A DNA stretch of 9,491 bases from a virus (taxonomy: Duplodnaviria; Heunggongvirae; Uroviricota; Caudoviricetes), in IMG/VR virus record IMGVR_UViG_2547132272_000017, positions 1-9,491 of that record, one strand, 5' to 3'. The translations under genes were made by a program, and so were the position numbers. The notes under the pieces are model-generated. The model searched no databases. It had not been told where the DNA came from and worked only from the letters and a program-made list of their open reading frames with translations. Shown here piece by piece: positions 103-9,052 of this stretch. Position 1 is the first letter of the stretch, and the number at the start of each line of letters is the position of its first letter.

Positions 103-1494
103 TCAAAAGAAACGCTCCATCTTACTGCTGTCAGTTCGTTTGTTGCTGTATCTGCGCGGCTGAGGCTGCTGCATTGGGGTGGAAAGAATCTGTGCGCTTT
201 CCTGATCCACAGGCAGAAAATGTCCGTTATAAAAACGCCGATAAATCGTCCCCAGAGAACCGTTACGTTGTTTCGTGATATTGATTTCTGCGATGCCCCT
301 GGCCTGCGTATCCGGGTTGTACACTTCATCCCTGTAAAGCATCAGAATGATGTCTGCATCCGCCTCTATTTCTCCGGAATTTTTCAGGTCTGAGTTCATG
401 GGGCGTTTATTGGGCCTGGACTCCACACCGCGGGAGAGCTGACTCAGCGCAATCAACGGAAAACCACCGGATTTTGCCAGGCCTTTAAGCCCCTTTGAGA
501 TTTCACCAACGGCAAGGTCATGACGCCCTGTGGTTCGGGTTTTTATCAGCCCGAGATAATCAACCACCACCAGCGCCGTTTCCGGATGTTTAATCAGGTG
601 ATGTTTCGTTGTTGCGCATATCTCATCAATGGTCAGGTTCGCCTGGTCCACCATCCAGATATTGCGCCCGGTCATCCGCCCCACTCCTTGTGAGAAACGT
701 GCCCAGTCTTCGTCTTCAAAGTGAGTGACAGATTTCAGGCGTGATACCGGCATTCCTCCAGCCGCAGATACCATGCGTTCACCAATCTGGATGTTCGCCA
801 TTTCCATTGTGAACAGAAGAACACCATGCCCCTGCTCAGTCACCTTGTCGATGATATCCAGCGCCAGTTCGGTTTTGCCCATCGAAGGACGTGCAGCAAT
901 AAATACCAGGTCGCCAGGCTCCATGCCGCCCGTTTTTGCGTCCAGTTCATCAATACCGGTCATCAACGTCCTGGATTTCTCCAGCCCCTGATTCCGGCAT
1001 TCAACACGCTCAACCACTTCCGGAAGCACATCATCAATATGTACCGGCTGAATAACGCCCTTTTCCGTCGACAATGAGGCCATCATGTTCTGCGCATCCT
1101 TCAGAGCATCTTCAGCTGCTTCACAGGTATGCGCATCACGTAATTTCTGCAGCGCCTCATTCAGTGTTTTTTCTGCATCACGCAATGCGGCATTACGCCG
1201 CAACGCCGTAACATAGTGCTCCAGTGACGACTTCACCCAGGTTTTGCGCCCGGTATCAGTAATCACCGGGGCAAGTTCCGGCATCTCATTACACAACAGC
1301 ACAGGGTCAATCACGCCGGACACACGGGCCTGTCTGCAGATGCCTGTGTAGATATCCCGGTACGGTCGTACAGAAAAAACGTCCGCCGGTAGTGTGGCCA
1401 GAATATCCATCACTTCAGGATCTGCCCCTCGCAGAAAAAACGCGCCAATGACAGCGCCTTCCAGGTCATCGTTACGCCAGACAGGAGAAGTCAT
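103..1494 (-). CDS. DnaB-family replicative DNA helicase (phage-encoded)
   Basis: Long ORF with Walker A motif (ARPSMGKTELALD) and overall DnaB-like RecA-fold layout. Start placed at the ATG at 1494 (MTSPVWRND...), preceded by GGAGG and overlapping the upstream gene's stop as ATGA. The ORF track's start at 1533 is a TTG without an RBS. Confidence 0.85.
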   Translation of the reverse strand: MTSPVWRNDDLEGAVIGAFFLRGADPEVMDILATLPADVFSVRPYRDIYTGICRQARVSGVIDPVLLCNEMPELAPVITDTGRKTWVKSSLEHYVTALRRNAALRDAEKTLNEALQKLRDAHTCEAAEDALKDAQNMMASLSTEKGVIQPVHIDDVLPEVVERVECRNQGLEKSRTLMTGIDELDAKTGGMEPGDLVFIAARPSMGKTELALDIIDKVTEQGHGVLLFTMEMANIQIGERMVSAAGGMPVSRLKSVTHFEDEDWARFSQGVGRMTGRNIWMVDQANLTIDEICATTKHHLIKHPETALVVVDYLGLIKTRTTGRHDLAVGEISKGLKGLAKSGGFPLIALSQLSRGVESRPNKRPMNSDLKNSGEIEADADIILMLYRDEVYNPDTQARGIAEINITKQRNGSLGTIYRRFYNGHFLPVDQESAQILSTPMQQPQPRRYSNKRTDSSKMERFF

Positions 1495-2381
1495 GCTGCC
1501 ACACCTCCGATATGTGCACGGTAACTTTCCCAACCAAACACCAGGCAGTTACGCCCACCATCAGTAACGCGATCCACAATCCGTTCACCAATGGACTCCT
1601 TAAGTTGGTCAAATGTCAGATTACTAATCAAAATTGTCGGTAAAACGCTTTCGTAACGTGCATTGATGATTTCCTGCAGGATGGTTATCTCTGTTGGCGT
1701 ACCGAACTGCACACCAACCTCATCGATGATGAGCAGGTCCAGCGATACAAAATGGTCAATAACTTCATCTTCAGTGCGTTCAGAATTGTGACGCCAGGTA
1801 TTTTTCACAGCGCGGGTCAGTCGCATGACATCCGTAATTTCGACAGTCGCCAGGTGGTGGCGAATAATATTTTTTGCCATTGATACAGCCAGGTGATTTT
1901 TCCCGGTACCGCAATTGCCAATCATGATCATGCTGGTACCCGCAGCAAGACACTTCTCCCATGAACTGGCATAGCGCCGACAAGCCTCAAGATTTCTCTG
2001 TGCGTCAGCATTCACAGCCTGGTAGTTCTCAAACTCGCAGTCCTGGAAGCGGCGGGCAATACCAGCTCTGTCAAGTAATTCATGAACTTTCAGGATGCGT
2101 AACGCCTCCTGTACCTGATCCAGTTCATTCGCAATGCAGGTCGGGCAACCAGACACCCGTTTGATGGTTTCCCCACGAACATCTGGCCCTTTCAACACCA
2201 GACGTGTGTATTTCCCGTGTTTCTCACACTCAGCAGTTTCCTCGCTTGTCAGCCAGTGTTCACAGCGCCACGGACGCTTCCCGGCACGGGCAAACTGCAT
2301 CTCCTCCTCCAGTTCCGCCCTGCGGTTGAGCAATTGCGCTTTATCGTGTTGTGCGTAGTGTTTTTTTAACTGTTCAAACAT
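1491..2381 (-). CDS. DnaC/IstB-like AAA+ ATPase, putative helicase loader / replication protein
   Basis: Walker A (GNCGTGKNHLA) and Walker B (LLIIDEVG) motifs. Cys-rich N-terminal region (RCEHW, ECEKHG, GCPTC). SD GAGGTGA 7 nt upstream of the ATG at 2381. Stop overlaps the helicase start (ATGA). Confidence 0.8.
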   Translation of the reverse strand: MFEQLKKHYAQHDKAQLLNRRAELEEEMQFARAGKRPWRCEHWLTSEETAECEKHGKYTRLVLKGPDVRGETIKRVSGCPTCIANELDQVQEALRILKVHELLDRAGIARRFQDCEFENYQAVNADAQRNLEACRRYASSWEKCLAAGTSMIMIGNCGTGKNHLAVSMAKNIIRHHLATVEITDVMRLTRAVKNTWRHNSERTEDEVIDHFVSLDLLIIDEVGVQFGTPTEITILQEIINARYESVLPTILISNLTFDQLKESIGERIVDRVTDGGRNCLVFGWESYRAHIGGVAA

Positions 2382-2400
2382 TGTTCATCACCTCGAAAAA

Positions 2401-3378
2401 TCACCAGTTGAAGTTCGTTGAACCGTAGTCCTGCTCACTGAATCCCGAGATCGGGAGGCCGGTAGTTCGCCCACCTCCGGGAGCGGCTGGCTGTTGCCAG
2501 GATTCCTCGAAATGGCGATCGGGTCCAAAGAACGTCGCGGCCTGCTTCACGAACTGTGTGCCTGTATTTCCTGTAGCACGTACCCAGGCGGCATACCGCT
2601 TCACACCATCAAGCATGGTCTCCGGTTTTATTCCCTCCCTGATACGGGCTTTCCAGGCTTTGAAGGCTGCTGACTTGGAATTGCCACCAGCACGTTTGGG
2701 ATATTCCTGCCAGGCCTGTTCAAATTCCGGTGAATATTCCTGTCGGGCAGAACGCGCTGGTGCAGACGCGTCAGCGGATGCGCCAATAGTGTTTTTAGTC
2801 TCCGTTGTAATCTCTGTAGTAATCTCTGTATTTGTATCAACATTCGGCGTATCCCCTGTTCCGTTATGACGTTGGGGGGTGTTCCGTTTTAACGTAATAG
2901 CTGTATCGCTGATTGCGTTATTGCTGTTACTTTCTGGCGAAACAGAAGAAGGAGTAGTAATGGCAGCAATTGCCTGTGGGTTGATCCCGACAAACAAAAT
3001 ATTGCTGCATTTCACACCATCGAGCATTTCCACCGTGCGTAAATCCAGGGAAATAAACCCGGCATCACGAAGGCGCTTCAACGCATCCGCGGTTTCCCTT
3101 TTCCCGAAACCAAACTGCTCAGCAAACGCCTGATAACTTCTTTGCAGCTTGTCCCCCTGAAAACGCTTGCGATATCCCAGCAAAGCCCCGGTATGCTCAT
3201 CCCTGACTTCTGTCGGGCGGTACCAGTAAACGATCTCTGAGAGCAGGGCGATAGCGGTCGCATCCGGACGACCACTGGGTAGCCGAATATGTTTCCACCA
3301 GTTCGCTGGTGTGACATTGCCGGAAATATTAATTTGACCAATAGCTATAACTTCCGGTGTGGGGGCGTAACGACTCAT
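2401..3378 (-). CDS. Phage replication initiation / replisome-organiser protein (O-like)
   Basis: 325-aa ORF immediately upstream of the DnaC-like and DnaB-like genes, with a strong SD (AAGGAGG). N-terminal region resembles phage replisome-organiser proteins; a low-complexity linker (TEITTEITTE) separates it from a C-terminal domain. Assignment rests on position and architecture, not on a searched match. Confidence 0.6.
   Translation of the reverse strand: MSRYAPTPEVIAIGQINISGNVTPANWWKHIRLPSGRPDATAIALLSEIVYWYRPTEVRDEHTGALLGYRKRFQGDKLQRSYQAFAEQFGFGKRETADALKRLRDAGFISLDLRTVEMLDGVKCSNILFVGINPQAIAAITTPSSVSPESNSNNAISDTAITLKRNTPQRHNGTGDTPNVDTNTEITTEITTETKNTIGASADASAPARSARQEYSPEFEQAWQEYPKRAGGNSKSAAFKAWKARIREGIKPETMLDGVKRYAAWVRATGNTGTQFVKQAATFFGPDRHFEESWQQPAAPGGGRTTGLPISGFSEQDYGSTNFNW
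2807..2830. repeat. Perfect tandem 12-bp direct repeat (gtaatctctgta x2) inside the O-like gene
   Basis: Read directly: 2807-2818 and 2819-2830 are identical, followed by a partial third unit (tttgta). Encodes the TEITTEIT linker on the minus strand. Confidence 0.7.
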
Positions 3379-3674
3379 ACAGCCTCCTTACGCGGCATAA
3401 CAATGGTGTAACCCCGGGCAGGCTGGAGCCGGGCTTTTGCATCAATAGTGAGCGTTGCAATTTTTCGGATACGCAGATACCCTGCCCTTTCCAGGGTCAG
3501 GGTTTCTCTGAACATTGCCTGTTTTGAACAGCAACAAAAATCGGCAAGGACCTGGTGATCAATAACCCTCTCACCTTCACCGTCTGAAGAACCCGACATC
3601 AAAACACGCAACATAATCAGGCGCTGAATCGGATTATCGAAAACACTTCCGCATACAAACTGAAAACAGTTCAC
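3375..3674 (-). CDS. Hypothetical protein (99 aa, GTG start)
   Basis: GTG start at 3674 preceded by GGGAGG at good spacing. Start overlaps the upstream stop (GTGA) and the stop overlaps the O-like start (ATGA). The C-terminal half (QVLADFCCCSKQAMFRETLTLERAGYLRIRK) may be a winged-helix-like segment; this is unverified. Confidence 0.5.
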   Translation of the reverse strand: MNCFQFVCGSVFDNPIQRLIMLRVLMSGSSDGEGERVIDHQVLADFCCCSKQAMFRETLTLERAGYLRIRKIATLTIDAKARLQPARGYTIVMPRKEAV

Positions 3675-5862: not shown

Positions 5863-6108
5863 TCACTTCTCGTCCTCTGTGTGCGCTAAGCTTGGGTGTG
5901 GAAAAAGCTCTGGTAGGTCTGGACGAAATTCATACGCTTGGATCTTTCCGTCGACAGCTGCAACCAATAACGGCACAAATTCTGGTGAAATCTTGTTCTT
6001 GCAGTTCAACCAATCGCAGACTGTTGACTGGGCCTTTCCGCATCGCTTGGCTAAGGCTTGCTGACTTCCAAGAATCTCAATAGCTTTCTCTATGGCTTTA
6101 TGTTTCAT
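5863..6108 (-). CDS. cro: Cro-like HTH regulator (YdaS-type)
   Basis: Divergent from the cI-like gene across the operator region. Pattern AIEKAIEILGSQQALAKRCGKAQSTVCDWL...EFRPD matches the YdaS/Cro-like HTH family. Start set at ATG 6108 (MKHKAIEK...) with SD AGGAGA; the ORF track's longer start lacks an RBS. Confidence 0.75.
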   Translation of the reverse strand: MKHKAIEKAIEILGSQQALAKRCGKAQSTVCDWLNCKNKISPEFVPLLVAAVDGKIQAYEFRPDLPELFPHPSLAHTEDEK

Positions 6109-9027: not shown

Positions 9028-9052
9028 GAAGAATATAATTCTTCCGTTTTTT
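9028..9052 (+). terminator. Candidate intrinsic terminator (AT-rich 7-bp stem GAAGAAT / ATTCTTC, loop ATA, T6)
   Basis: Read directly, 8 nt after the stop of the 193-aa gene. The stem is weak (two G-C pairs), so efficiency is uncertain. Confidence 0.45.

Follow-up and report, generated by a model that had tools for sequence, protein, structure and literature searches.

Introduction

In bacteriophage lambda the replication origin is located inside gene O and comprises four iterons and an AT-rich region, and the origins of the Shiga-toxin (Stx) phages have six iterons. The AT-rich tract of lambda and the Stx phages is dispensable for the formation of the O-some; it is needed for unwinding, and is bound as single-stranded DNA by O (PMC7466680). 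Here we describe a tandem array of 12-bp repeats (positions 2792..2839) found inside the replication initiator gene (2401..3378, minus strand, 325 aa) of a stretch of viral DNA of 9,491 nucleotides (IMG/VR record IMGVR_UViG_2547132272_000017, hereafter the window), which by its sequence comes from an E. coli prophage, lambdoid and phiP27-like, and represents its early-right region; phiP27 is the closest sequenced phage overall, covering 63% of the window with 92.6% identity. With a probability that we place at roughly 0.55, the DNA at ~2792-2920 would be a lambda-type origin lodged in the linker-coding DNA of the initiator, in which the 12-mer array would act as a sequence-specific unwinding element and not as the iterons. 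An origin within an initiator gene, made of iterons and an adjoining unwinding tract, is a known kind. No description of a single 12-bp repeat that is conserved at synonymous sites across phyla, common to three initiator families and used as a joint of domain shuffling was found in the searchable literature, which excludes most subscription literature, and the Eru paper on non-lambdoid Stx phages makes no mention of iterons, repeats or a replication origin.

The proposed origin resembles that of lambda in several respects: it lies inside the initiator gene, in the DNA for the inter-domain linker; a low-stability tract is promoter-distal to dyad-symmetric repeats; and both the N-terminal half of the initiator and the iterons differ from phage to phage, with a C-terminal half that can be exchanged. 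The annotated lambda iterons, at O codons ~117-145, are 18 bp long, show dyad symmetry and start 20-24 bp apart. Unlike lambda, the initiator of the window does not belong to Pfam Phage_rep_O, the module supplies a loader of the DnaC type and a DnaB-like helicase of the phage itself in place of P and the host DnaB, only 2-3 iterons are recognisable, and the tract is not simply rich in A+T but consists of a conserved tandem repeat of 12 bp.

Short repeats are also found in the DNA unwinding elements (DUEs) of other replicons. The DUE 13-mers of oriC and of the RK2 oriV are sequence-critical and are bound as single-stranded DNA by DnaA, TrfA or RepE; in oriC, RK2 oriV, F and the ori2 of V. cholerae (RctB) short DUE repeats are held single-stranded by the initiator, and RepE can bind simultaneously the duplex of the iterons and the single-stranded DUE, as winged-helix Rep proteins are likewise able to do (PMC10797057). 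The window array recalls these elements (oriC 13-mers, DnaA-trios, RK2 oriV, F and ori2), in which repeats of 3-13 nt adjoin the double-strand sites of the initiator, the sequence matters beyond its A+T content, and the importance or conservation of the units drops away from the last binding site. It differs from them in being inside a coding sequence; moreover, the DUE repeats reportedly vary from one replicon or organism to another (PMC10797057), whereas the 12-mer is common across phyla and initiator families.

The RepA_N plasmids, of the pSK41 and pAD1 type, are alike in architecture only, with an N-terminal DNA-binding domain and repeats in the centre of their own gene. Passages of a review describe Rep boxes inside the pSK41 rep gene, where the ori-encoded linker is dispensable for the protein in trans, and a resemblance of the N- and C-terminal domains of RepA_N proteins to DnaD; the same passages on pSK41 mention no separate conserved 12-mer array beside the Rep boxes (PMC5703833). 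DnaD_N is also among the weak fold matches of the window initiator; nevertheless, this protein has no Pfam RepA_N match, and unlike RepA_N it belongs to a phage module that encodes a loader and a helicase of its own.

The 12-bp array in the window

The original prediction had pointed to two perfect tandem copies of a 12-bp repeat, plus a partial third, inside a replication initiator gene, encoding the linker between its domains at the place where O of lambda has its iterons. Each of these points was borne out. On the plus strand, perfect copies of GTAATCTCTGTA are located at 2807-2818 and 2819-2830, with no other exact match in the window; by our own estimate, the chance expectation for a perfect tandem 12-mer in 9.5 kb is ~9491/4^12 = 6e-4. 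Tandem Repeats Finder (TRF) reports at 2799-2830 the best-scoring array of the window (period 12, 2.7 copies, 90% matches, score 50), and the unit preceding the perfect pair (TTAGTCTCCGTT, 2795-2806) matches in 8/12 positions. When up to 3 mismatches are allowed the 12-mer has 13 matches in the window versus 5.8 expected, a number reached by 1/200 shuffles, and a profile made from the arrays of 45 relatives has a single match, at 2796-2839 (E = 5e-12). The protein matches PHROG 270 'replication initiation protein' with E = 4.7e-75 and its gene is followed by those for a DnaC-like loader and a DnaB-like helicase. The linker, residues 145-214 (2737..2946, minus strand), is predicted by AlphaFold to be disordered, with a predicted local distance difference test (pLDDT) score below 50, and its DNA carries the candidate origin; the repeats at 2792-2920 fall within the codons for residues 153-196 of it. 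Likewise, the annotated lambda iterons occupy the equivalent place in O.

The coding-strand (minus) form of the 12-mer is ACAGAGATTACT. In the AGAGATTACTAC register the array, i.e., the proposed unwinding element, has four coding-strand units, TGATACAAATAC, AGAGATTACTAC, AGAGATTACAAC and GGAGACTAAAAA, placed at 2828-2839, 2816-2827, 2804-2815 and 2792-2803, the central two being near-perfect. The minus-strand reading ACA GAG ATT ACT ACA GAG ATT ACA ACG GAG gives the peptide TEITTEITTE, from T184 to E193.

The array is the least stable DNA in the initiator gene, and what is conserved is its sequence and not only its A+T content. Its G+C is 0.37 at 2780-2839 and 33% per unit, and its nearest-neighbour stability is -1.12 to -1.25, versus a mean of -1.39 (SD, standard deviation, 0.12) kcal per step. 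On average over the family (45 loci) the array is 1.2-1.6 SD less stable than the locus mean and is flanked by more stable DNA, particularly at +50 to +70 past it. As in the lambda arrangement, the low-stability tract of the window lies on the promoter-distal side of the last candidate iteron.

Conservation of the array at the DNA level

A search with residues 1-183 of the initiator revealed relatives in Salmonella, Yersinia, Proteus, Morganella, Arsenophonus, Marinomonas, Geobacillus and many metagenomes, which carry varied C-terminal domains. In an alignment of 23 sequences, DTNTEITTEITTE is the sole conserved peptide stretch past the winged-helix domain; the linker peptide varies among homologues except for the repeat-encoded part. 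A scan with the motifs EIVYWYRP and DKLQRSYQ, over one genome per GTDB species, gave 353 confirmed loci, whose N-terminal domain is without a Pfam model of its own; the 80 of these 353 loci that were retrieved belong to Gammaproteobacteria, Bacillota, Chloroflexota, Cyanobacteria, Rickettsiales and other groups.

The codons under the array peptide are the same across phyla: ACA AAT ACA GAG AWT ACT ACA GAG AWT ACT ACA GAG. This was quantified in 60 non-identical loci from several phyla by comparing the 12 codons from the start of the T[NY]TE motif, i.e., the array together with the preceding Thr-Asn/Tyr codons, with the rest of the same open reading frames (ORFs). From the motif start, Glu is encoded by GAG in 94% of the cases, versus 37% in the rest of the ORF (Fisher p ~1e-33); the corresponding values are 83% and 42% for Ile as ATT, 75% and 35% for Lys as AAG, and 91% and 64% for Asn as AAT, while Thr as ACC falls to 2% from 24%. 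The Fisher p for these differences goes from 1e-7 to 1e-33, with counts rebuilt from rounded fractions. GAG is preferred over the more A+T-rich GAA, and therefore something reads the sequence. The second array unit, which played no role in the finding of the arrays, is conserved (in %) as A83 C81 A85 G66 A85 G85 A91 W T96 A87 C83 W; the third unit is weaker than the second, and conservation therefore declines with distance from the upstream repeats.

In addition, the DNA of the array survives in all three reading frames among lineages, giving in the other frames peptides such as VYRDYLEITTK, IYRDYTENTKEIT, HIQRIHTEITTE and NYREYNRDS. Thus, a Planococcaceae genome has GTA TAC AGA GAT TAC TTA GAG ATT ACT (VYRDYLEIT), a cyanobacterium TAT AGA GAT TAC ACA GAG AAT ACT (YRDYTENT), Acinetobacter ATA CAG AGA ATA CAT ACA GAG ATT ACT (IQRIHTEIT), and an Eubacteriales metagenome-assembled genome (MAG) TAC AGA GAA TAC AAC AGA GAT (YREYNRD). 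The density of the 12-mer, with up to 2 mismatches, is 2.1 per kb in the initiator ORFs versus 0.19 per kb in their flanks, an eleven-fold difference.

Two matches of the 12-mer are unrelated to the initiator family: one in a giant-virus MAG contig (L098), due to a long low-complexity stretch of RDYNRDYN within an ORF of 470 aa, and another in a short non-initiator context (L121).

Copy number, initiator families and mosaic joints

A comparison of homologous genes for repeat copy number, as the original prediction had suggested, showed that near-identical E. coli alleles differ in their perfect TACAGAGATTAC units: two in the window and SF-088, three in HS13-1 and PU-1, and 11 in the prophage of E. 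coli STEC2018-553 (NZ_CP075665.1 319754-320845). The candidate iterons described below are invariant among these alleles while the copy number of the 12-mer varies. A viral contig with a window-type N-terminal domain has four TEIT-type units, three of them perfect and one ending in ...AAT, and other taxa have 0-6 recognisable units. The array is slippage-prone, yet its sequence is held.

When viral contigs were scanned for exact matches to two adjacent 12-mer units, at least 120 contigs were found. In 118 of the 120 listed the units are read in frame 0 of an ORF, in most cases 270-370 aa long, at about residue 140-190, and only 15 of those 120 carry the motifs of the window-type N-terminal domain. 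The first 125 residues of these proteins cluster into three N-domain families (E <= 1e-10) that are joined only at E <= 1e-3; the one direct match between the window and another family shows ~22% identity, and an 'LLxQIxYW' helix is common to all three. At the other side of the array, 17 unrelated C-terminal clusters were found, four of which are common to different N-domain families. One locus (L194) joins an N-terminal domain of the type of L002 to the C-terminal start of L091. With tblastn, the N-terminal domain of the window found among phages only uncharacterised phages of Acinetobacter, Bacillus and Geobacillus; the second family is present in phages of Staphylococcus, Klebsiella and others, and P22 is not among the 40 of its 112 records that were listed. 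The N-domain family also appears on 22 plasmid records (e.g., Candidatus Megaera, Nostoc, Protochlamydia and Vagococcus pBN31-16k), which suggests that the module may also serve plasmid replicons; the 16-kb Vagococcus plasmid has another Rep gene and is therefore uninformative on the self-sufficiency of the module. The plasmid members, from Rickettsiales-like endosymbionts, cyanobacteria and Firmicutes, are sometimes annotated as 'DnaA-like'.

The DNA similarity of the window to LC567835 and LC567818 stops at 2829, and that to phiP27 at 2788. LC567835 and LC567818 have four 12-mer-like units (TEITTEITSESTTE), a different N-terminal half and different neighbouring repeats. The array is a recurrent mosaic joint, and the shared repeat may act as a crossover site for the exchange of modules. 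An argument that we abandoned was that the N-terminal domain of LC567835 and LC567818 is unrelated to that of the window, which would have spoken against a link between the array and the N-terminal domain: the three families are remotely related at E = 1e-3, and the argument, being weakened by this, was re-based on the divergence of the iterons.

From these joints, and from the copy numbers of 2, 3 and 11, it could be argued that the array has no role in cis and is a slippage-prone Thr/Glu/Ile repeat of a flexible linker, spread as a recombination joint between modules; the location of the peptide in a predicted disordered linker, the breaks of phage similarity at or beside the array, and the four C-terminal clusters that several N-domain families have in common would all fit. 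The original prediction had kept a similar fallback, simple linker expansion. Slippage does alter the copy number; nevertheless, the synonymous sites are fixed across phyla where the identity of the flanking protein is only 31-55%, the DNA is kept when the reading frame changes, and GAA, ACC and ATC would be tolerable in a linker yet are almost absent. Recombinability alone is also unlikely to fix a 12-mer from Rickettsiales to Bacillota. Simple linker expansion, and any explanation at the level of the peptide, were rejected because of the synonymous-site and cross-frame conservation and the disorder of the linker; an array devoid of any cis role is already disfavoured, and we consider it very improbable.

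Candidate iterons next to the array

A second set of repeats lies on the promoter-proximal side of the array. Candidate iteron 1 (2881..2897, coding strand TTACGTTAAAACGGAAC) is an imperfect dyad, ACGTT-AA-AACGG, and belongs to a direct repeat with 23-bp spacing and 88% identity; its homologue in Serratia, Yersinia, Xenorhabdus, Peribacillus and Brevibacillus is TTACGTTGAAACGTAA. Candidate iteron 2 (2858..2874, CAACGTCATAACGGAAC) is located 23 bp from it. The two are in different frames (LKRNT versus RHNGT) and therefore the repeat exists at the DNA level; the pair represents 2 matches in the window versus 0.3 expected. A degenerate candidate iteron 3 (2835..2851, TACGCCGAATGTTGATA), 23 bp from iteron 2, abuts the 12-mer array; it is invariant in five E. 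coli prophage alleles, and a variant of it (TACGCCGAAAAGTGAG) is at the same position in Rosenbergiella. A possible fourth copy (2904..2920, TAACGCAATCAGCGATA), weak and doubtful, was read directly from the sequence: it has its own dyad (5/6) and is 23 bp from iteron 1, with only an 8/17 match to it.

In the relatives this periodicity is regular. Over the 144 nt that precede the array, self-similarity is strongest at a period of 22-23 bp in 42/47 GTDB loci and in 3/~190 control segments of the same loci, and a 23-bp period was found in 59/60 viral loci of the other two N-domain families (44/45 and 15/15). The repeating unit is a palindrome of 14-16 bp followed by a C-rich spacer, with successive copies in different reading frames. 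Serratia, Yersinia, Xenorhabdus, Peribacillus and Brevibacillus share the palindrome TTACGTTnnAACGTAA; Lachnospiraceae have TACAAAAnTTTGTA, a Rickettsiaceae MAG has TTCCCCACAGGGAA and a Bacillota MAG GACAAATTTGTC, and the palindromes of the other two N-domain families are GGTCAAAnTGACC and TTTCCCGAAATGGGGAAA-like. The array, always promoter-distal to the iterons, is joined to the last of them via a fixed junction, ...GAGAC(A/G)(A/T)ATACAGAG....

The sequence of the 12-mer does not co-vary with the N-terminal domain, since it is the same with three families and next to at least five different palindromes. Since the palindromes change from initiator to initiator and the 12-mer is constant, the former are the better candidates for the initiator-binding iterons. 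In consequence, the original prediction of candidate origin iterons is kept in one part and changed in the other: the selection on the DNA is that expected of an origin element, and the name of iterons passes from the 12-mers, constant across three N-domain families, to the neighbouring palindromes, which differ.

The opposite assignment has points in its favour. Plasmid Rep proteins bind as monomers on direct repeats and as dimers on inverted repeats; hence the 12-mers could be the true iterons, i.e., the double-strand sites of the N-terminal domain as direct repeats, and the palindromes with a period of 23 bp could be auxiliary or autoregulatory. The 12-mers are direct, tandem and within the initiator gene, they co-occur with one winged-helix superfamily that shares the 'LLxQIxYW' helix, their conserved sequence, including G and C positions, implies specific recognition, and the conservation peaks beside the palindromes. 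However, the 12-mer is unchanged across three barely alignable N-domain families and in lineages with fully diverged palindromes, and the specificity of a recognition helix is not expected to stay fixed over such divergence. A period of 12 bp leaves little space per unit for a winged-helix footprint, near-identical E. coli alleles have from 2 to 11 copies, and the precedent of lambda gives the role of iterons to dyad-symmetric repeats with starts ~20-24 bp apart. On balance, this assignment seems unlikely to us.

A proposed two-part intragenic origin

From the anatomy of the locus, the conservation of its DNA, the variable iterons next to an invariant 12-mer, and the low duplex stability, we infer the following course of binding, melting and loading. 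Dimers of the N-terminal winged-helix domain would bind the iterons (2835-2897, possibly to 2920), on which the initiator would assemble; the 12-bp array beside the last iteron would then melt, and one of its strands would be held in a sequence-specific manner; the initiator itself would most likely do this, in the way of Rep proteins and DnaA on repeated DUE elements. The C-terminal domain would subsequently bring the DnaC-like loader and the DnaB-like helicase to the opened DNA. As in DUE repeats, the short tandem repeats abut candidate binding sites and are constrained at the level of the sequence.

Several observations weigh against the proposal of an iteron-plus-unwinding-element origin. 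The iterons of the window are weak: only two of the copies are good, and over the 144 nt preceding its array the autocorrelation is best at a period of 15 and not of 23. The array is only moderately A+T-rich, and intergenic sites near 9040 and 9399 are less stable; the family average of stability is partly circular, because the same conserved sequence is being averaged. Specific G and C positions are conserved, and A+T richness alone is therefore insufficient as an explanation. Phage phiP27 has the same C-terminal domain, loader and helicase without the array, and therefore the module does not require it. Finally, a sequence homology of the array to the AT-rich tract of lambda, suggested by the look of GDTKDTITKEKRKDY, was rejected when the profile of 45 arrays gave no match there; the link to lambda is therefore one of position and architecture only.

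A different reader of the array may also be considered. A universal bacterial replication protein, or a physical property of the DNA or RNA, could take the place of the initiator; for instance, the array could be an entry or priming site for a DnaB-family helicase or the DnaG primase, or could give a purine-rich R-loop transcript in transcriptional activation. The sequence does not change between Gram-positive and Gram-negative hosts, nor with the three N-domain families or the 17 C-terminal clusters; purines predominate on the coding strand, as they do in the AT-rich tract of lambda; and in every unit one strand contains CTG and the other CTA, the trinucleotides that enterobacterial and Firmicute primases prefer. 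These trinucleotides are nonetheless too short to account for a conservation of 12 bp, and we know of no sequence-specific recognition by DnaB. An Rfam search of 2300-3500 gave no match at E <= 1, no promoter-like site was found in the initiator gene, the repeat region included, the origin region is devoid of DnaA boxes, and, again, phiP27 has the same loader and helicase without the array. A non-initiator reader thus appears rather improbable.

A broader version of the unwinding-element proposal, which we advance tentatively and hold to be somewhat less probable than its falsity, would make (ACAGAGATTACT)n a universal, sequence-specific origin element of the whole winged-helix (O-like/DnaD-like) superfamily, covering phages, prophages and some plasmids of Proteobacteria, Bacillota, Chloroflexota, Cyanobacteria and Rickettsiales. 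Such an element would be independent of the specificity of the iterons, of the helicase-recruiting domain and of the host. Its reader would be a surface conserved in the initiator, for which the aromatic 'LLxQIxYW' helix, in contact with single-stranded DNA, is a possible candidate. Since it is shared, the array would also be the joint at which modules are shuffled.

The initiator and its replication module

Of the profile libraries searched, only PHROGs names the initiator: neither a Pfam family (E <= 0.01) nor an NCBIfam family matches the whole 325-aa protein, the Pfam search did not place it in Phage_rep_O, the family of lambda O, and the matches to PHROG 391 and 678 ('O-like') are weak (E = 2e-6 and 5e-5). 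An identical gene is annotated in E. coli cq9, and the gene is present in four complete E. coli genomes of pig or porcine origin with 99.5-99.8% identity. At a coverage of 80% or more it was found in 220 genomes, where most of the E. coli entries listed say 'hypothetical protein'; other RefSeq names, in some genomes, are 'replication protein' and 'LvrA C-terminal domain-related protein'.

In the AlphaFold model, which was built with the 23-sequence alignment, residues 1-144 (2947..3378, minus strand) form a predicted winged-helix domain with pLDDT 80-94, presumably the one that binds the iterons. HTH_36 weakly matches residues 81-109 in a Pfam search with residues 1-139 (E = 0.018), and the folds retrieved by Foldseek were generic ones only (winged-helix and DnaD_N), with no match at E <= 1e-3. 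The C-terminal domain, residues 215-325 (2404..2736, minus strand), is predicted to be helical, with lower confidence than the N-terminal domain; it is a shuffled module with a presumed role in the recruitment of the loader and the helicase, and it matches PHROG families of DnaD-like helicase loaders, replication proteins and primosomal proteins. Its DNA is ~90-95% identical to that of many Stx and lambdoid phages, a similarity that stops at 2788-2829. A G+C-rich near-palindrome, GCAGACGCGTCAGC (2762..2775), is an inverted repeat that follows directly on the array, where the conserved C-terminal module starts, and sits inside the conserved 'IGASADASAPAR' opening of this module; in lambda too there is a palindrome past the AT-rich tract.

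The gene for the DnaC-like AAA+ helicase loader (1491..2381, minus strand) matches Pfam IstB_IS21 (E = 1.8e-15); it is named 'ATP-binding protein' in RefSeq and 'DnaC-like helicase loader' in the annotation of phiP27. It is followed by the gene for the DnaB-like replicative helicase (103..1494/1533, minus strand), with matches to Pfam DnaB_C (E = 9e-73) and to the DnaB N-terminal domain; its coordinates are those of the RefSeq 'replicative DNA helicase' mapped across from another locus (L004).

The order of initiator, DnaC-like loader and DnaB-like helicase is also that of phiP27, whose initiator L17 has a C-terminal module with 95% identical DNA and, like the window, repeats in the linker-coding part. 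Unlike the window, L17 has an N-terminal domain of the HTH_36 type and no 12-mer array. Its repeats (NC_003356.1 ~3160-3400) consist, on the coding strand, of AAAACATGATCCGCAAG twice and a divergent third copy, and contain GATC; on the plus strand of this locus, a AGATTCTGAAGGGTCA-like unit is present in ~5 copies. They are probably a different origin solution in the same slot.

Elsewhere in the window, a second 12-bp tandem repeat is located at 6075-6099 (TCTCAATAGCTT / TCTCTATGGCTT, TRF score 36), apparently at the 5' end of a minus-strand ORF starting at ~6107, where it would encode ...KAIEKAIEI....

Significance

To our knowledge, the way in which lambda-O-like initiators, which are without an ATPase, open the DNA is still argued, and the AT-rich region is usually treated as non-specific. 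An invariant repeat beside freely changing iterons suggests that unwinding involves a signal which is specific and can be read, and provides the 12-mer as a defined experimental target, for which the alleles with 2, 3 and 11 copies are natural material to follow the effect of copy number. Together, the 12-mer and the palindromes with a period of 22-23 bp mark the origin and the initiator gene where the latter is annotated as 'hypothetical protein', including prophages related to the Shiga-toxin phages, and the array accounts for a recurrent mosaic joint in phage replication modules.

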